Source: Anaerolineae bacterium CG2_30_64_16
GTDB lineage: Bacteria; Chloroflexota; Anaerolineae; CG2-30-64-16
Assembly: GCA_001871755.1 (NCBI GenBank)
Contig: MNXL01000093.1
Span: 1-39,850 of the forward strand
DNA length: 39,850 nucleotides
Direction of reading: 5' to 3'
Both the position numbers and the translations under genes were made by a program. The first letter of the stretch is position 1; every line of letters starts with the position of its first letter. The notes beneath the pieces were generated by a model. That model did not search any database and was not told where the DNA came from. It worked only from the letters and a program-made list of their open reading frames with translations. Shown one piece after another: positions 3,694 through 15,356 of this stretch.

Positions 3694-4050
3694 ATGTGTG
3701 CGGATGAAGCATCTGAAACGATCCACGAAGCGCGACCGATCTATTCCGGGGTTGAGACGCGTTGGCTCGACGAGCCTTTGATCGTTGAGCGAGCGGGACA
3801 CCCCACTGCGGTCATCATCTCCCTGGAGGAGTACCGGCGTTTTGCCGCCTGGCGCGAAGAACGAGCAGCCCGGCGCGCCTGGGTTCTGGAGTGCCAACCG
3901 CGCAACCATATGACGGATCAGGAATGGGATGCCCAGTTCGTCACTATGGATCGTTTCGCAACGCATTTCGCGGACATCACCGACGATGAATTGGCAGATG
4001 AGTTGACACAGGCAGTGAGCGCAGTGCGTGCTGAACGAGCGCGCCGATAA
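3694..4050 (+). CDS. putative antitoxin (Phd/YefM-like N-terminus)
   Basis: AAGGAGG lies 6 nt upstream. PLIVERAGHPTAVIISLEEYRRF resembles Phd/YefM antitoxins. It sits 6 nt upstream of a PIN gene. Confidence 0.6.
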   Translation: MCADEASETIHEARPIYSGVETRWLDEPLIVERAGHPTAVIISLEEYRRFAAWREERAARRAWVLECQPRNHMTDQEWDAQFVTMDRFATHFADITDDELADELTQAVSAVRAERARR

Positions 4051-4056
4051 GCTGTC

Positions 4057-4539
4057 ATGGCTGAGAACTTCAGCGCTGCGCCCCGGCGACTGATCGTCGT
4101 GCTCGATACAAATGCCCTGGTTCGAGTGGCCCTGGCGAAAAGTCCACTTGCCAGGGTATTGCGTTGTTCGCTGGAGCGCGGCGACTTTGTCTTGCTGACG
4201 TCGGGTGACATCCTGAACGAGATTGGCCGGGTTTTGTGCTACCCCCGAATCGCCATCCATCATGCCTTGTCCGAGGCAGCCATCGAGGAGTTCGAATTGG
4301 CCGTGAGGAAAGCGGCGGTGGTTGTCCCTGGACTCTACGTTGTGCGCAAGATTGAGGCTGATCCCTCCGACGATATGTTCCTGGCTTGCGCGCTGGAAGG
4401 GGACGCTGACTATATCGTCAGCGAAGACCCACACGTGCGAGATCTCAAGACCTATCAGGGCATTCAGATCATCTCGATGGCGCAGTTTTCCGAGAAGCTG
4501 GGTCTATCTGTGGCCCGTCCAGCGTCGCCCCAAACGTGA
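4057..4539 (+). CDS. PIN-domain toxin (TIGR00305-like PIN family)
   Basis: VVLDTNALV at the N-terminus, an acidic DPSDDMFLACALEGDADYIVSEDPH block and a QGIQIISMAQF tail. Confidence 0.8.
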   Translation: MAENFSAAPRRLIVVLDTNALVRVALAKSPLARVLRCSLERGDFVLLTSGDILNEIGRVLCYPRIAIHHALSEAAIEEFELAVRKAAVVVPGLYVVRKIEADPSDDMFLACALEGDADYIVSEDPHVRDLKTYQGIQIISMAQFSEKLGLSVARPASPQT

Positions 4540-4570: not shown

Positions 4571-4623
4571 AGGGCGGCGGGATGGGCAAGAGGCGGCCGA
4601 GGGGTCATGTGGGCGATTTGACA
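4571..4623. repeat. direct repeat copy 2 flanking TA cassette 1
   Basis: agggcggcgggatgggcaagaggcggccgaggggtcatgtgggcgatttgaca. See 3576-3636. Confidence 0.8.
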
Positions 4624-4646
4624 GACCCATCGACCTGTGCTAGACT
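4618..4646 (+). promoter_or_regulatory. candidate promoter of the ilv-leu leader
   Basis: TTGACA (4618-4623), a 17-nt spacer, then TAGACT (4641-4646). Confidence 0.4.
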
Positions 4647-4970: not shown

Positions 4971-6662
4971 ATGAAACGAACAGGGGCCCAGATTGTCTGG
5001 GAGAGCATGATGCGTGAGGGTGTGGCGGTGGTATTCGGCTATCCAGGCGGGGCGATCATGCCGGTCTACGATGCGCTGTTGGACTACCCGGTTCATCATG
5101 TGCTGGTGCGCCACGAGGAGAACGCCGCGTTTGCCGCTGATGGCTATGCCCGAGCGAGTGGCAGGGTGGGAGTCTGTCTGGCCACTTCAGGGCCGGGCGC
5201 CACCAACCTGCTAACTGGTCTCGCCGACGCGATGATGGATTCGGCGCCGGTGGTGGCGATCACCGGGCAGGTGGCGTCGAGCCTGGTGGGTTCCGATGCG
5301 TTTCAGGAAACCGATGTGACCGGCGTCACGCTGCCGGTGACCAAACACAACTATCTGGTCACCAGGGTGGAGGAGTTGGCGGGCGTGATGAAAGAGGCGT
5401 TCCACATCGCCCGCTCCGGCCGACCTGGCCCCGTGTTGGTCGATGTATGCAAAGATGTGCAGTTCGCCTCCACCGATTTCGACTACGACGCCATCCAGGT
5501 GCGGTTGCCCGGCTATCGGCCAGTGATGCGGGGTACCGAAGAGCAGATCGAGGAGGCGGTGGCGCTGATCAACGCCTCGCAGCGCCCCATCATCCTGGCC
5601 GGCCACGGCATCATCCTCTCCGGGGCGCACGACGAACTCCAGTCCCTGGCCGAAAAAGCCCACATCCCCATCTCCACCACACTCCTGGGTATCGGCACGA
5701 TCCCCGAATCCCATCCACTCAACCTGCGCATGATGGGGATGCATGGTGAGGCCTATGTGAATCAGGCGGTTCAGGCCGCAGATCTCATCCTCGCGCTGGG
5801 CATGCGCTTCGATGATCGGGTCACCGGTACACTGCGCACCTATGCCCAGAACGCCCAGGTGATTCATGTGGACATCGACCCGGCGGAGATTGGCAAGAAC
5901 GTAGTCGCTGACATCGGCATCGTCGGCGATGCGAAAAACGTCCTGGCCCAGCTCCTGCCCCGAGTCGAGTACCAGGAGCGGGCGGACTGGTTCGCCCAGA
6001 TCGACGAGTGGCGGCAAGATACCACCCGCCGCGACATCCTGAACCGGGAGGAGGATGCTTCGCTGCACGTGCCGTTTGTGATCGATCAGATCCGGCGCAG
6101 CATCAACGGCAGCGGCCAGGTGACCATCGTCAGCGACGTGGGCCAGCACCAGATGTGGGCGGCGCAATACTTCCGCCACGAGCGGCGCAACCGTTTCTTT
6201 ACATCGGGCGGGCTGGGCTCGATGGGCTGTGGTCTGCCGATGGCGGTAGGCGCCTCCTTCGCCAGACCGGACGAGGAGGTCTGGGTGATCGCCGGGGATG
6301 GCGGTTTCCAGATGAGCCTCCCTGAGCTGGCGACCGTCGCGCAGGAACGGCTGCCGATCAAGATCGCGGTAATGCGGAATGGCTACCTTGGGATGGTGCG
6401 GCAGTGGCAGGAGCTGCTGCTTGGAAAGCGTTACTCAGGCGTTGCCATCAGCAGCCCGGATTTCGTGAAGGTGGCCGAGGCGTACGGCATCCTGGGGATG
6501 CGGGCGAGCGAGAAGTCACAAGTGGCCGAGGTGATCGCCGAGGCTCGGTCTCATCCCGGCCCGACCCTGATCGACTTCGTGGTGGAGCAGGAGGCCAACG
6601 TCTACCCGATGGTGGAGCCGGGCAAGGCGCTGCACGAGATGTTGCGGCGACCGCTCGCGTGA
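4971..6662 (+). CDS. ilvB: acetolactate synthase large subunit
   Basis: 563 aa, ThDP enzyme. N-terminal GAQIVWESMMREGVAVVFGYPGGAI and the ThDP motif GGLGSMGCGLP...GDGGFQM. GGAGGAGGGG RBS. Confidence 0.93.
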   Translation: MKRTGAQIVWESMMREGVAVVFGYPGGAIMPVYDALLDYPVHHVLVRHEENAAFAADGYARASGRVGVCLATSGPGATNLLTGLADAMMDSAPVVAITGQVASSLVGSDAFQETDVTGVTLPVTKHNYLVTRVEELAGVMKEAFHIARSGRPGPVLVDVCKDVQFASTDFDYDAIQVRLPGYRPVMRGTEEQIEEAVALINASQRPIILAGHGIILSGAHDELQSLAEKAHIPISTTLLGIGTIPESHPLNLRMMGMHGEAYVNQAVQAADLILALGMRFDDRVTGTLRTYAQNAQVIHVDIDPAEIGKNVVADIGIVGDAKNVLAQLLPRVEYQERADWFAQIDEWRQDTTRRDILNREEDASLHVPFVIDQIRRSINGSGQVTIVSDVGQHQMWAAQYFRHERRNRFFTSGGLGSMGCGLPMAVGASFARPDEEVWVIAGDGGFQMSLPELATVAQERLPIKIAVMRNGYLGMVRQWQELLLGKRYSGVAISSPDFVKVAEAYGILGMRASEKSQVAEVIAEARSHPGPTLIDFVVEQEANVYPMVEPGKALHEMLRRPLA

Positions 6663-6695: not shown

Positions 6696-6730
6696 CCCGA
6701 AATTCTTGTTTTTTGTGCAAGGATTTTGGG
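6696..6730 (+). other. A/U-rich 13-bp hairpin just after the ilvB stop
   Basis: cccgaaattcttg (6696-6708) pairs with caaggattttggg (6718-6730), including 2 G-U pairs, with a 9-nt loop. No T-tract follows. Confidence 0.45.
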
Positions 6731-6735
6731 AATGG

Positions 6736-6774
6736 CGGCTGTCGTTTTTTTGGTTCCGGCTTGTCCGGGTTAGG
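6736..6774. repeat. 39-nt interspersed intergenic element, copy 2
   Basis: cggctgtcgtttttttggttccggcttgtccgggttagg, 38/39 identical to 1-39. It ends 18 nt before the ilvN ATG. Confidence 0.8.
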
Positions 6775-6792
6775 ACTGGAAAGGAGCGACCT

Positions 6793-8480
<1,688 letters not shown>

Positions 8481-8625: not shown

Positions 8626-10224
8626 ATGGATGAACCTGCTGTTGTTCGTATCTTCGATACAACCCTGCGCGACGGTGAGCAGTCACCGGGCGCGACGCTG
8701 AATATCGACGAGAAACTGGAGATCGCCCGGCAGTTGGCGCGTCTGGGCGTCGACGTCATCGAGGCCGGCTTTCCGATTGCGTCACCAGGCGACTTCGAGG
8801 CGGTGCGCCGGGTGGCCGACGAGGTGGGACGGGGCGATGACGCCCCCATCATCGCCGGGTTGGCGCGGGCCAATCAGGCCGATATCGACCGGGCCTGGCA
8901 GGCCGTCAAGGGCGCGCGGCGGCCGCGCATTCACACCTTCCTGGCGACGTCTGACATCCATCTGAAGTACAAGCTCAAGATCAGCCGCGAGGAGTGCCTG
9001 GCGCGAGCGGCCGAGATGGTGGCCTATGCCCGCGGTTTGTGTGAGGACGTGGAGTTCTCGCCGGAGGACGGCGGCCGCTCAGACCCCGAGTTCCTTTATC
9101 AGGTGCTGGAGGCCGCGATCAAGGCCGGCGCGACCACTCTCAATATCCCGGACACCGTCGGCTACACTACCCCGCAGGAGTTCGGCGCGCTGATCGCCGG
9201 CATCCGTGAGCATGTGCCAGGCGCCCGGGATGTGATCCTTTCGGCGCACTGTCACAATGACCTGGGGCTGGCGACAGCTAACACCCTGGCCGCCATCGCC
9301 AACGGGGCGCGCCAGGTCGAGGTGACCGTCAACGGGATCGGCGAGCGGGCGGGCAACACGTCGTTGGAAGAGGTCGTGATGGCGTTGTACACCCGGCCCA
9401 CGGTCTACGGGCTGCGCACCCATATCGACACCACCCAGATCGCCCGAGCCAGCCGCCTGGTCAGCGCGTACACCGGCATTCCGGTGCAGCCCAACAAGGC
9501 GATCGTCGGCGCGAATGCGTTTGCGCACGAGGCCGGCATTCACCAGGATGGCGTGCTCAAGAACCCGTTGACTTACGAGATCATGCGGCCCGAGACGATC
9601 GGCATCACCGAGAGCAAGCTCGTCCTGGGCAAGCACAGCGGCCGCCACGCGTTCCAGACCAAGCTGGCCGAGTTGGGCTACGACCTGAACCCGGAGGACA
9701 TGAACCGCGTGTTCGAGCGCTTCAAGGACCTGTGCGACAAGAAGAAGGTCGTCAGCGATCCTGACATCGAGGCGATCATCAACGACGAGGTGTACCAGCC
9801 GGTGGAGTTGTGGCGGCTCGAGCACGTCCAGGTCTCTTGCGGCACCAGCATGCGCCCCACGGCTACGGTGACGTTGCGCGGCCCGGATGGCATCGTGCGC
9901 GAGGACGCCGCGGTCGGCGCCGGGCCGGTGGACTCGGTCTACATGGCCATCAACCGGATCGTCCAGGCGCCCAACGTGCTCACCGAGTTCAGCATCAACG
10001 CGGTGACCGAAGGGATCGACGCGGTGGGTGAGGTGACGATTCGCATCGAGGGGACCAACGGCGCGCACGGCCGGCACTATGCCCTGAACCCGCAGTTCGG
10101 CCTGCGTCAGCGCACCTACAGCGGCCACGGCGCAGACACGGATATCATCGTGGCGTCCGCAAAGGCGTACATGAGCGCGTTGAACAAGATGCTGAGTGCG
10201 CGCAAAGAGGAAGTCGGCGGCTAG
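8626..10224 (+). CDS. leuA: 2-isopropylmalate synthase
   Basis: 532 aa. [33 protein letters not shown], and a C-terminal LeuA dimerisation/regulatory domain. Confidence 0.92.
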
Positions 10225-10631
10225 GAAGCGGATTCCAGGAGGCGCAAGAACCGGCCAAGCTTGATGATTTGGATGCCTGCGTAGCTGCCCAAATCGAGAA
10301 GGTCATCGTCCTGTGAGACGACGTATTTGCAGTGACCGTCCAGGGCGCACTCGATGAACTTGTTGTCGTCTGGGTCACGCTCGACGACGTTAAGCAGGCT
10401 GGTTACCTGGATGACATCGCAGAGCTCGACCAGGCGCAGCCACCACTCGTACGTGGACTCGTCGGGAAGGTCGAAGTAGGCGCGCAAAGTCCTGACGATC
10501 TCATGCAGGATCGGGTGAGAGGCAACCGCAATGTAGTTGCCCGCCTCTGCGCGAAGATAGAGTTGGTGAGCGGCGCTGCGGCGGAGGATGGCGCCGATCC
10601 AGACGTTGGTGTCAAGGACAGCGCGGGTCAA
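10221..10631 (-). CDS. PIN-domain toxin (paralogue of 4057-4539)
   Basis: [49 protein letters not shown]. It has a TTG start that overlaps the antitoxin stop (TTGA). Its stop shares CTAG with the leuA stop. Confidence 0.8.
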
Positions 10632-11065
10632 GACCTCCTCCGATCGTGGGCGACGCGCCTCGTGCGGTGCACGGCTTCATCGACGATCTGGTCGAATTGC
10701 TCATCGGTCAAAGTGTCGTAGTCCAGGTCGCGTTCCTTGAGCCATGCGCGCATATGCGTTTCCGTGCGGCGCTCCAGATCGTAGATCGCCGCATCGGGAC
10801 CAAGCCGAGCATAGCGTCTCTCGACCTCTTCCACAGCCAGGGCGGCGCGGGCGAGCTCAGCCGGCGAAGCGCCATCTTGGGCGAGCATGTCGAGATATGC
10901 CTGGCGCAATTCGCCAATGGGGGGTTTGGTCCGCAGCGTCTTAGCGTACCTCACAACCAGCCAGACGTCACGCGGGGAGAGGGCCTTGATGGCCGATGTC
11001 AGTTCTTGTTCGAGCATTTTGTCCATGAATTCCTGCTCCCTGAGGCGTTGGTCTCTGGAGGTCAT
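10628..11065 (-). CDS. putative antitoxin of the antisense PIN cassette
   Basis: The ATG at 11065 ([13 protein letters not shown]...) lies 18-25 nt downstream of a consensus promoter. The gene is translationally coupled to the PIN gene. Its C-terminal motif is shared with antitoxin 3694-4050. Confidence 0.6.
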
Positions 11066-11089
11066 TGAACCCTTCACGGGCTCAAACCG

Positions 11090-11118
11090 ATTATAGGCCA
11101 GATGTTCGGGCCTGTCAA
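11090..11118 (-). promoter_or_regulatory. consensus sigma70 promoter of the antisense TA cassette
   Basis: The minus strand reads TTGACA, a 17-nt spacer (ggcccgaacatctggcc), then TATAAT. It lies between the antitoxin ATG and the leuC RBS. Confidence 0.65.
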
Positions 11119-11139
11119 TCCCGTTTTTACAGGAGGCGT

Positions 11140-12552
11140 ATGCCACGCACACTTTTCGACAAGATCTGGGACGCCCACGTGGTGGCCGCGGAAACAAGCG
11201 CAGCGACGGCAGCCCCGACTGTGCTCTACATCGACTTGCACCTGGTCCACGAAGTGACATCGCCGCAGGCGTTCGAGGCGTTGCGGCAGCGCGGGCTCAA
11301 GGTCCGCCGGCCTGATAAGACCGTAGCGACCGTCGATCACAGCATCCCGACGCACGACCGCGCGCTCCCCATCACGGACGCGCTGGCGGCCAAACAGATC
11401 GCCCAACTGGAGACGAACTGCCGTGAGTTCGGTATCCCGCTGTACAGCATCGGCAGCGATCATCAAGGCGTGGTCCACGTGATCGGCCCGGAGCTGGGGC
11501 TGACCCAACCCGGCATGACCATCGTCTGCGGTGACAGCCACACGGCCACCCACGGCGCGTTCGGCGCGCTGGCCTTCGGCATCGGCACCAGCGAAGTGTC
11601 GCACGTGCTGGCCACCCAATGCCTGTTCCAGGAGAAGCCGCGGAGCTGCGAGGTGCGGGTCGCGGGACGGCTGGGGCCGGGTGTCTCGCCCAAGGACATC
11701 ATCCTGGCGTTGATCGCCCAGAACGGCGTGGGCGGTGGCGCCGGGCAGGTGTTCGAGTACACCGGGGGCGCGATCCGGGCGCTCTCGATGGAAGGCCGGA
11801 TGACGGTCTGCAACATGAGCATCGAAGGGGGCGCGCGGGCCGGGTTGGTCGCGCCGGACGACACGACCTTCGAGTATCTGGCCGGCCGGCCGTTTGCCCC
11901 GCGGGGGACAGCCTGGGAGCGGGCCATGGCGCGCTGGCGGGCGTTGCCATCCGACCCCGGCGCGACCTACGACAAGACCATCACCCTGGATGTGAACGAC
12001 CTGGCGCCGATGATCACCTACGGCGTCAACCCCGGCATGGGGATGCTGGTCACGGGCCGCGTCCCTGACCCGGAAACGGTGCCCGACCTCAGCCAACGCC
12101 GGGCGCTGGTGAAGGCGTTGGACTACATGGATTTGACGCCGGGGCAGGCGCTGCTCGGCCACCCGATCGACGTGGTGTTCATCGGCTCGTGCACAAACGG
12201 CCGCCTGTCGGACCTGCGCGCCGCGGCCGGGGTCTTGCGCGGCCGCAAGGTCGCGGCGGGCGTGCGCGTCCTGGTCGTGCCGGGCTCGCAAGAGGTCAAG
12301 GCCCAGGCTGAGGCGGAACGGCTGGATGTGATCTTCAAGGAGGCCGGCTGCGAGTGGCGGGAGCCGGGGTGCAGCATGTGCATCGCGATGAACGGCGATC
12401 AACTACAACCGGGCCAGTCCGCGGTGAGCACCAGCAACCGCAATTTCGAAGGCCGGCAGGGGCCGGGTGGCCGCACCTTCCTGGCCAGCCCGTTGACCGC
12501 CGCGGCGAGCGCGGTGGCGGGCGCGGTGGCGGACGTGCGGATGATGATGTAG
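11140..12552 (+). CDS. leuC: 3-isopropylmalate dehydratase large subunit
   Basis: The ATG at 11140 follows [21 protein letters not shown] and the aconitase-family Cys motifs ([20 protein letters not shown]). Confidence 0.93.
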
Positions 12553-12649: not shown

Positions 12650-13258
12650 ATGGAACCATTTGGGACACTGACCAGCCGGCTTGTTCCCCTGGCGGCCGAG
12701 AACATCGACACCGACCAGATCATCCCGGCGCGTTTTCTGAAGACCACCGACAAGGCCGGATTAGGCGACAACCTGTTCGCGGATTGGCGGTATGACGGCG
12801 CCGGCAACGCCAAACCGGACTTCATCCTGAACCAACCGGCGGCCCGTGGCGCGCAGATCTTGCTGGCCGGCGACAATTTTGGATGTGGCAGCTCGCGTGA
12901 GCACGCGCCGTGGGCGCTCCTCGGATATGGCTTCCGGGCCGTGATCAGCACCTCCTTCGCCGACATTTTCCGCAACAACGCGCTGAAGAACGGGCTGCTG
13001 CCGGTGGTCGTGGATCGGGACACGCACTGGCAGTTGTTTAGCCTGGTCGAGGAGGAGCCGTCCACAGAGCTCGTGATCGACCTGGCCGCGCAAACCGTGA
13101 TCCTGCCGGACGGCCGGGCGGTCACCTTCCCGATGGAGAGTTTCTCGAAAGAGTGTCTGTTGCAGGGCGTGGACGAGTTGGGTTCTCTGCTGGCTCGGAT
13201 GGAGCAAATCGACGCGTACGAGGCGCGCAGGCCGGACGCGGTGCGGACGGTGGCGTGA
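12650..13258 (+). CDS. leuD: 3-isopropylmalate dehydratase small subunit
   Basis: 202 aa. [14 protein letters not shown] and [17 protein letters not shown]. Confidence 0.92.
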
Positions 13259-13766: not shown

Positions 13767-15356
13767 ATGACCCTCATATCTGTCTACGACACCACTCTGC
13801 GGGACGGCGCCCAAGGGGAGGGAGTTTCTTTTTCTCTCGAGGACAAGCTCAAGGTTGCCTTGCGCCTGGACGATATGGGCATCCCCTACATCGAAGGCGG
13901 GTGGCCCGGCTCTAACGCCAAGGACGCCGAGTTCTTCCGCCGCGCCCGGTCGTTGCCCCTGAAGCAGGCGCGCATTGCCGCATTTGGCTCGACGCGGCAC
14001 GCAGACACGCCCTGCGAGACCGACCCGCAGGTGCAGATGCTGCTGGACGCGGAGACGCCGGTCGTCACCCTCGTCGGCAAGACGTGGGATCTGCACGTGC
14101 GGCGCGTTCTGGAGACGACCCTGGAAGAGAACCTGGCGATGATCGGCGACACCGTGGCCTATTTCAAAGCCAGAGACCGCGAGGTGATCTACGACGCGGA
14201 GCACTTCTTCGACGGCTATCGGGCCAGCCGGGAGTACGCGTTGGCGACGGTTCAGGCGGCCTACGCGGCCGGCGCTGCGTACATCGTCCTGTGCGACACC
14301 AACGGCGGGGCCGTGCCGTGGGCCGTGGAGGCGGCCGTCCGAGACGCGCGGCAGCACCTGGACGCGGTCCGAGCCGCGCAGGGGCTGACCTGGCCGGTCC
14401 AGCTTGGAATCCACACCCACGACGACGGCGGCCTGGCGGTGGCCAACGCGTTGGCCGCGGTGCGGGCTGGCTGCACGCAGGTGCAGGGCACCATCAACGG
14501 CTACGGCGAGCGCGTGGGCAACTGCAACCTGTGCACCGTGGTCCCTGCATTGCAGCTCAAGCTGGGGATGTCCTGCCTCTCGACCGAGAATCTGCGGCGC
14601 CTCACCGAGCTCTCTCGTTTCATCAGCGAGACCGCCAACCTGGCCCACGATTCCCGCCAACCGTACGTGGGCGCGAGCGCGTTTGCCCACAAAGGCGGCA
14701 TCCACGTGGCTGCCATCATGAAGGCCGAGGAGAGCTATCAGCACATCGATCCGGCGCTGGTGGGCAATGCGAAGCGGGTCCTCGTCAGTGAGCTGTCTGG
14801 CCGCGGCAACCTGGTGTTCAAGGCCCGGGAGTACGGGCTGGACGCCACCCGGGACGACGTAAAGCAGGTGCTGGAGCATATCAAGGAGTTGGAGAGCCGC
14901 GGCTTTTACTTCGAGGGCGCCGAGGCGTCGGTGGCGCTGATGTTGCACCGGCTGCGCGAGGACTATCGGGCGCCCTTTGAATTGATCGACTTCATGGTCG
15001 TGGTGGAGAATCGCCAGGGACGCGGCATGTTGGCTGAGGCGACGGTGAAGGTCAAGGTCGGCGGTGAGATCGTTCACACCGCCGCGGAGGGAAACGGCCC
15101 TGTCAACGCCCTGGATCGGGCGTTACGCAGGGCGCTTTTGCCGCACTATCCGCAGTTGTCTCACGTGCACTTGACCGATTACAAGGTGCGCATCCTGGAC
15201 GGCGACGCGGCCACCGCGGCCACGACGCGCGTCATCATCGACACGCGCAACACGCACAACTCGTGGAGCACGGTGGGATCGTCCAGCAACATCATCGAGT
15301 CGTCGTGGCAGGCGCTGGCCGACAGTATGGAGTACGCGTTGTTGGCAGGCAGTTGA
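13767..15356 (+). CDS. cimA: (R)-citramalate synthase (LeuA/CimA family, TIGR00977-like)
   Basis: 529 aa. ISVYDTTLRDGAQGEGVSFSLEDKLKVALRLDDMGIPYIEGGWPGSNAKDAEFF is the typical CimA-type N-terminus. It has a C-terminal LeuA-dimer-like domain. Confidence 0.75.
   Translation: MTLISVYDTTLRDGAQGEGVSFSLEDKLKVALRLDDMGIPYIEGGWPGSNAKDAEFFRRARSLPLKQARIAAFGSTRHADTPCETDPQVQMLLDAETPVVTLVGKTWDLHVRRVLETTLEENLAMIGDTVAYFKARDREVIYDAEHFFDGYRASREYALATVQAAYAAGAAYIVLCDTNGGAVPWAVEAAVRDARQHLDAVRAAQGLTWPVQLGIHTHDDGGLAVANALAAVRAGCTQVQGTINGYGERVGNCNLCTVVPALQLKLGMSCLSTENLRRLTELSRFISETANLAHDSRQPYVGASAFAHKGGIHVAAIMKAEESYQHIDPALVGNAKRVLVSELSGRGNLVFKAREYGLDATRDDVKQVLEHIKELESRGFYFEGAEASVALMLHRLREDYRAPFELIDFMVVVENRQGRGMLAEATVKVKVGGEIVHTAAEGNGPVNALDRALRRALLPHYPQLSHVHLTDYKVRILDGDAATAATTRVIIDTRNTHNSWSTVGSSSNIIESSWQALADSMEYALLAGS

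Follow-up and report, generated by a model that had tools for sequence, protein, structure and literature searches.

A putative PIN_3 toxin-antitoxin module, apparently a long-term resident beside leuC in uncultured Anaerolineae of one family

Toxin-antitoxin modules are usually viewed as mobile, patchy and locally meaningless. The promoters of type II modules are normally auto-repressed, their antitoxins are commonly built from a C-terminal toxin-binding domain and an exchangeable N-terminal module, and PIN toxins of the VapC type cleave specific tRNAs or rRNA loops, as in PDB 5wz4, which is titled a sarcin-ricin-loop-cleaving toxin. The locus presented here is best compared with the VapBC modules of this type (S. 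flexneri VapC, 5ecw; R. felis VapBC2 on its promoter, 3zvk; P. horikoshii VapC4, 5h4g). It is a cassette of two minus-strand genes in a stretch of 39,850 nucleotides (nt) from an uncultured member of the Anaerolineae (Chloroflexota; contig MNXL01000093.1, hereafter the window), where it lies antisense between leuA and leuC of an ilv-leu operon read on the plus strand (Table 1). Like the VapBC modules the cassette is a small antitoxin-first operon with a stop/start overlap, its toxin is predicted to adopt the PIN fold and has four conserved acidic residues, and it has its own promoter with a conserved spacer, which is a candidate operator. Unlike them, its toxin belongs to the PIN_3/TIGR00305 branch and finds no sequence-level match among solved structures, its antitoxin is a six-helix protein of 132 amino acids (aa) without AbrB, ribbon-helix-helix (RHH), Phd or helix-turn-helix (HTH) signature, and it stays at one chromosomal site across genera.

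We consider it reasonably probable that the cassette is a working type II toxin-antitoxin module which has long been resident at the 5' edge of leuC. The toxin would be a PIN_3 (VapC-like) ribonuclease and its partner an all-helical antitoxin of an uncatalogued family, the two being translationally coupled through a TTGA overlap. The pair would be transcribed from a consensus sigma-70 promoter of its own, the 17-nt spacer of which is probably an operator at which the antitoxin or the complex would repress the pair's own transcription. Further, purifying selection seems to have maintained the module, which has apparently been lost on many occasions and swapped between lineages at least once, and which in one family of uncultured Anaerolineae always diverges from leuC.

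The genes were read from a list of open reading frames (ORFs) and a Pfam scan. An earlier note on this DNA had described an antisense PIN toxin-antitoxin cassette occupying the whole leuA-leuC gap, and the Pfam, NCBIfam and ORF results agree with it in both identity and geometry. The gap measures 915 nt, and leuA converges on the toxin gene so that the two stop codons overlap in the palindrome CTAG (10221-10224), which the note had also described. The gap is filled as claimed, but the upstream gene of the cassette starts with ATGGAC at 11026 and not near the gap end. The toxin matches PF13470 (PIN_3) at 4e-17, with 63.5 bits against a cut-off of 27, and NCBIfam TIGR00305 with 54.1 bits against a cut-off of 29.15. 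Its acidic residues D7, E44, D86/D89 and D108 are invariant in seven homologues (six orthologues and one paralogue). The AlphaFold model of the toxin (pLDDT 90) was matched by Foldseek to VapC structures with TM scores of 0.62-0.72, including P. horikoshii VapC4 (5h4g, TM 0.72), PAE2754, S. flexneri VapC and M. tuberculosis VapC15; the likeness to solved structures is thus at the level of the fold only.

The 132-aa partner precedes the toxin gene, and its TGA stop overlaps the TTG start of the toxin within the 4 nt TTGA. Among relatives the toxin start codon is TTG, GTG or ATG at a fixed position, and the coupled two-gene layout is found there as well. We aligned the region from leuC to the antitoxin for ten loci, comprising the window, three species genomes and six metagenome contigs, and the partner start ATGGAC and the GGAG preceding it are conserved in all of them. 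No family in Pfam, NCBIfam or PADLOC matched the partner above threshold; DUF2293 of Pfam was considered and rejected, as it reached 17 bits only against a cut-off of 25. The AlphaFold model of the partner (six helices, pLDDT 76) found no fold match in the PDB at a Foldseek E of 0.001 or below. A word-based search of 5.8 billion proteins returned only 12 clusters, 56-100% identical to the partner, while an HMMER profile search of 1.84 billion representatives returned 39, most of which have in common with it just ~85 residues at the C-terminus (positions ~40-125 of the profile).

This C-terminal part is an uncatalogued helical domain with the core ...RTExHxRxWxxERGLDYDxLSEE... (P0017-P0054), and where checked it is encoded upstream of PIN_3 genes. 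The N-termini ahead of it vary, one being weakly CopG/RHH-like, below threshold, and one beta-rich. The genes of two distant members stand immediately before PIN_3 genes in surroundings unrelated to the leu locus, and one of the two members has the CopG/RHH-like N-terminus. Since the domain recurs upstream of PIN_3 genes in three unrelated contexts and behind varied N-termini, it behaves as a PIN_3-partner domain, presumably toxin-binding, with exchangeable N-terminal modules, and the pattern supports the partner as a probable antitoxin of an uncatalogued family. Among the distant homologues, P0019 is found on two near-identical contigs (L065 and L066); an intact PIN_3 gene follows in one of them, and in the other no PIN_3 gene was called there and an opposite-strand ORF of 92 aa is listed.

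Purifying selection appears to have preserved the protein products of both genes over a long period. The ratio of nonsynonymous to synonymous divergence (dN/dS, Nei-Gojobori) is 0.08-0.32 for the toxin and 0.08-0.22 for the partner, with dS above 1, and hence saturated, between cassette types for either gene. These values bear on the possibility that the cassette is no more than a remnant, neutral or in decay, with no activity at present and conserved through recent common ancestry only. Such a remnant could account for a frameshifted toxin in one lineage, described below, and for the composition of the cassette, which has a guanine plus cytosine (GC) content of 59.8% against 64-69% in the flanks and also a lower GC content at third codon positions (GC3). 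Yet the dN/dS values of 0.08-0.3 hold between types with saturated dS, the frames are intact, and the promoter hexamers do not vary although the sequence around them has diverged, and we regard the remnant as extremely unlikely.

The perfect minus-strand TTGACA-17-TATAAT promoter of the earlier note was confirmed at 11090-11118, with a match at 12 of 12 hexamer positions, and it is the sole such site between 4000 and 16000. It does abut leuC, but the -35 hexamer lies 12 nt from the leuC Shine-Dalgarno sequence and not about 20 nt as had been stated; the distance to the leuC ATG is 21 nt. From the position of the -10 hexamer, transcription of the cassette is predicted to start near 11083. In the ten aligned loci TTGACA is invariant, TATAAT is present in nine, with TATACT in the remaining contig, and 17 nt separate the two hexamers throughout. 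The spacer, GGCCCGAACATCTGGCC (17 nt), is identical at 15-16 of 17 positions within the closest cassette type (type A) and at 5-10 of 17 between types, and the 5' untranslated region (UTR) is 43-67% identical among comparably diverged pairs. The locus L063 has TTGACA-17-TACAAT, 27 nt from its leuC ATG. Hexamers and spacing are kept, and the spacer is kept within a type while the 5'UTR diverges; this is consistent with strong selection on the promoter and with a putative type-specific operator in its spacer.

A count over the whole genome of the window (4 Mb) gave 51 perfect TTGACA-N16-18-TATAAT sites against none for a reversed control pattern, and exact-consensus sigma-70 promoters are unusually frequent in this Anaerolineae genome. 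Given this count and the conservation of the hexamers in relatives, the cassette promoter is evidently not a chance match. It had also been described as a very strong promoter. The consensus itself holds, but its strength has to be tempered, since consensus promoters are fairly common in this genome and toxin-antitoxin promoters are usually auto-repressed.

To place the cassette among relatives we surveyed 26 genomes of the family in which leuA and leuC lie on one contig. The gap between the two genes is only 0-190 nt in 20 of them, which points to a tight, co-transcribed leuA-leuC junction as the ancestral state, and the cassette therefore seems to interrupt a former co-transcription unit. 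The short gaps that were sampled hold palindromes built from heptamers and no promoter-like site. Inspected by eye, the plain operon spacers of relatives show palindromes of this kind, and intergenic spacers of the operon in this family (L050:3780-3870, L059:1310-1415 and leuA-leuC spacers) consist of heptamer repeats forming long palindromes (-37 to -41 kcal/mol, z about -6). Four of the 26 genomes carry the cassette: two from the genus of the window, the second being 'Chloroflexi bacterium HGW-Chloroflexi-1' (G000 and G001), and two 'Anaerolineae bacterium' metagenome-assembled genomes from two other genera (G023 and G021). The remaining two, from another genus, have a co-directional gltB or its fragments between leuA and leuC. 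One of these (L061; G017:C16:41800-46900) has a co-directional gene of 1512 aa in the gap, named from its ORF translation as glutamate synthase large-subunit-like; the other, of the same genus (L062; G050), has only fragments of a glutamate synthase gene.

The cassette was also found on eight kinds of metagenome contig. In all 11 leu-linked antitoxin clusters that were read, down to the ~125-aa P0017, leuC is divergent and directly upstream of the cassette. The toxin side is occupied by leuA wherever the contig reaches, with the exception of L063, where a Pfam scan identified gltB; hence the constant neighbour of the cassette is leuC and not leuA. The earlier note had called for a comparison of relatives, and this comparison indicates a conserved arrangement of long standing that is not peculiar to a single strain.

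Some of these results weigh against a plain toxin-antitoxin module. Strict site fidelity across family-level divergence would be unusual for a purely selfish element. The partner has no AbrB, RHH, Phd/YefM or HTH DNA-binding signature in either the family libraries or the fold search. Finally, in one lineage (L057/L058) the toxin gene has a 1-nt deletion, giving a 66-aa product, together with the substitution E84K (L057:1674-2090; seen in two independent assemblies), while neither the antitoxin gene nor the perfect promoter is damaged; their retention after decay of the toxin hints at a role beyond addiction. Another explanation would be that the pair does not act in addiction at all but is an RNA-processing or regulatory nuclease with its chaperone or inhibitor; its target would be the ilv-leu mRNA or a leucine-related tRNA, and its presence would thereby be bound to the operon. 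The leu locus is the exclusive association of this antitoxin subfamily, both genes are under purifying selection and cleavage of particular tRNAs or rRNA loops is established for PIN toxins of the VapC type, all of which would suit such a nuclease. The more distant homologous pairs, on the other hand, sit in unrelated contexts and the cassette is dispensable in most relatives, and we find this explanation very unlikely.

The position of the toxin-antitoxin cassette raises the matter of how leuC and leuD are transcribed. As the cassette breaks the leuA-leuC junction, leuCD transcripts would have either to cross 0.9 kb of cassette in antisense or to begin within the divergent promoter region that leuC and the cassette share. 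No intrinsic terminator was predicted between leuA and leuC on either strand of this genome, so transcripts of the operon may run antisense through the cassette and those of the cassette into leuA. Folding around the overlapping stops was not better than for shuffled sequences in the genome of the window and in G023 (z 0.2-0.5); in G021 and L059 the stretch where the two genes converge holds a strong palindromic hairpin built from heptamers, at -37 and -41 kcal/mol with z about -6. A search for known RNA elements between 3000 and 17000 gave none at E of 0.1 or below.

A promoter directed towards leuC was also considered. The earlier note had suggested TTGAAC at 11065-11070 with ATTATA at 11090-11095; the first hexamer stands, and the second is better read as GATTAT at 11089-11094, after an 18-nt spacer. 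As a promoter for leuC itself this candidate fares poorly, with a match at 8 of 12 positions and a -35 hexamer that is not conserved in relatives, and neither the site scan nor the alignment revealed a conserved separate leuC promoter. In the type A loci, in which GGAGGCGTATG at the leuC Shine-Dalgarno sequence and ATG (11131-11142) is conserved, 21-28 nt separate the cassette -35 hexamer from the leuC ATG, and thus there is no room for a separate promoter. The only plus-strand promoter-like site with at least 9 of 12 matches between 4000 and 16000 is TTGACA-17-TAGACT ahead of ilvB (4618-4646).

GATTAT nevertheless mirrors the TATAAT of the minus strand (11095..11090), with reciprocal -11A/-7T on both strands. 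In the work of Warman et al. 2021, as PMC10268837 summarises it, bidirectional promoters have -10 elements with this reciprocal -11A/-7T layout and start sites 18 bp apart. The layout here is alike, and starts near 11083 on the minus strand and 11101 on the plus strand, likewise 18 bp apart, are predicted; but the leuC-side hexamers are weak, and GATTAT is conserved as an automatic by-product of TATAATC.

It is against this background that co-option of the cassette control region should be weighed. A bidirectional promoter with the antitoxin as its repressor would drive leuCD (and the CimA-like gene), turnover of the antitoxin during starvation would raise leuCD, and the toxin would be secondary. 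The cassette always adjoins leuC divergently, even with gltB at the toxin side; no separate promoter fits within the 21-28 nt of the type A loci; no other plus-strand site reaches 9 of 12 between the ilvB promoter and 16000; and antitoxin and promoter are intact beside the frameshifted toxin in two assemblies. The GATTAT mirror would be in line with the layout of bidirectional promoters given in PMC10268837. Further, Rho is encoded in the genome, and 0.9 kb of untranslated read-through could therefore be polar.

Set against co-option, the plus-strand promoter matches at 8 of 12 positions only and lacks a conserved -35, any TATAAT with a C after it yields GATTAT on the opposite strand, 20 genomes of the family manage with a promoter-less spacer, and in most lineages purifying selection acts on the toxin. 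Read-through also seems feasible, because the 0.9-kb plus-strand RNA is not C-rich (C/G 1.08 or below in a check of Rho-site composition) and no terminator is predicted. On balance we judge co-option to be unlikely. For leuCD transcription as such, read-through and a divergent start appear roughly even, and we lean towards read-through with some divergent initiation.

The patchy presence of the cassette (4 of 26 genomes) is apparently due to losses and exchange of alleles. The carriers are scattered on maximum-likelihood trees of LeuC and LeuA, on which four to five changes are needed. G023 is sister to the cassette-less G014, and the flanks of the two are alike across the aligned leuA and leuC up to the insert, with ~9 differences, counted by eye, in the first ~66 nt of leuC compared. 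G021 is likewise sister to G009, which has no cassette. The tree of the cassette is at odds with those of the host genes, and for this reason alleles seem to have been lost and exchanged at one site. The clearest instance is L057, whose flanks resemble genus g14 (LeuA clade support 98/95; LeuC identity 86-87% against 80-81%) and whose cassette groups with that of G021 at 100/99, the two having in common a short 126-aa form of the antitoxin.

No donor-like tracts were found in the flanks, LeuA being host-like to its C-terminus in G021, G023 and L057. Transfer with long donor flanks was considered and is not supported, given the host-like LeuA and the alike flanks of G023 and G014. Deletion scars were not recognisable in the cassette-less sisters G014, G041 and G009. 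The simplest history would be that the cassette settled at this site long ago, was lost repeatedly and had its alleles exchanged in place at least once; such exchange could have proceeded through the highly conserved ends of leuA and leuC. A mobile element or recent insert was rejected on account of the same site in several genera, the saturated dS, the only mildly lower GC and the lack of a transposase or flanking repeats.

The leuA-leuC junction seems permissive to insertion across the phylum. No other toxin-antitoxin pair was found at it in a sample of 120 genomes of the phylum. The cargo seen there consists of gltB and, elsewhere in Chloroflexota (L069 and L070 of family f31; L071, G083), of a prephenate-dehydratase-like (pheA) gene or a Uma2-like endonuclease plus a methyltransferase, all three named from their ORF translations. 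In families f31 and f47 the gap can also hold 3-4.5 kb of further sequence.

Table 1. Coordinates of the cassette, its putative control elements and the neighbouring genes in the window
Feature	Position	Strand	Remarks
PIN_3 (VapC-like) nuclease toxin (predicted), 136 aa, TTG start	10221-10631	-	PF13470 and TIGR00305
Partner (putative antitoxin), 132 aa, six helices	10628-11026	-	Start and ribosome-binding site conserved in 10 loci
Cassette 5'UTR (inferred), ~57 nt	11027..11083	-	GGAG ribosome-binding site ~11036-11040
Cassette promoter, TTGACA-17-TATAAT	11118..11090	-	12/12 match
Candidate mirror promoter towards leuC, TTGAAC-18-GATTAT	11065-11094	+	8/12 match
leuC Shine-Dalgarno sequence, AGGAGG	11131-11136	+	ATG at 11140; from sequence
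leuA, 2-isopropylmalate synthase	8626-10224	+	Pfam HMGL-like 1e-97, HCS_D2, LeuA_dimer
leuC, 3-isopropylmalate dehydratase large subunit	11140-12552	+	Pfam Aconitase 9e-171; divergent from cassette
leuD	12650-13258	+	Strong Pfam match
CimA/LeuA-like gene	13767-15356	+	Strong Pfam match
ilvB	4971-6662	+	Strong Pfam match
ilvN	6706-7386	+	Strong Pfam match
ilvC	7419-8480	+	Strong Pfam match
Second PIN_3 module, just upstream of the ilvB promoter	3694-4050 and 4057-4539	+	118-aa and 160-aa proteins

The window holds a second PIN_3 module, which resembles the cassette in its two-gene layout and its lower GC3 (0.61-0.68 against 0.81-0.89 in the operon genes) but reads in the same direction as the operon, of which it is not a part. 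Its 160-aa PIN_3 protein is 35% identical to the leuC-side toxin, and its 118-aa antitoxin has a weak Phd/YefM-like match to PF02604 (24.4 bits, below the cut-off of 29.8). A similarity or shared C-terminal motif between the two antitoxins of the window was tried and rejected (BLASTP E 0.95).

Regulatory coupling of the cassette to the operon, which the earlier note had suggested along with head-on collision of transcription and a splitting of the operon into two units, is plausible. In its most far-reaching form, an antitoxin-repressed, pseudo-symmetrical promoter firing both ways would be what in fact drives leuCD and the CimA-like gene, turnover of the antitoxin during starvation would boost the second half of the leucine/isoleucine pathway, and the convergent transcript would damp leuA; we speculate along these lines while holding this full scheme to be distinctly unlikely. 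The cassette also defines an uncatalogued antitoxin domain that appears to partner PIN_3 toxins. The locus would further serve as a test case for whether chromosomal toxin-antitoxin modules can gain regulatory roles in their hosts, and for how convergent and divergent promoters inside operons may reshape transcription units.

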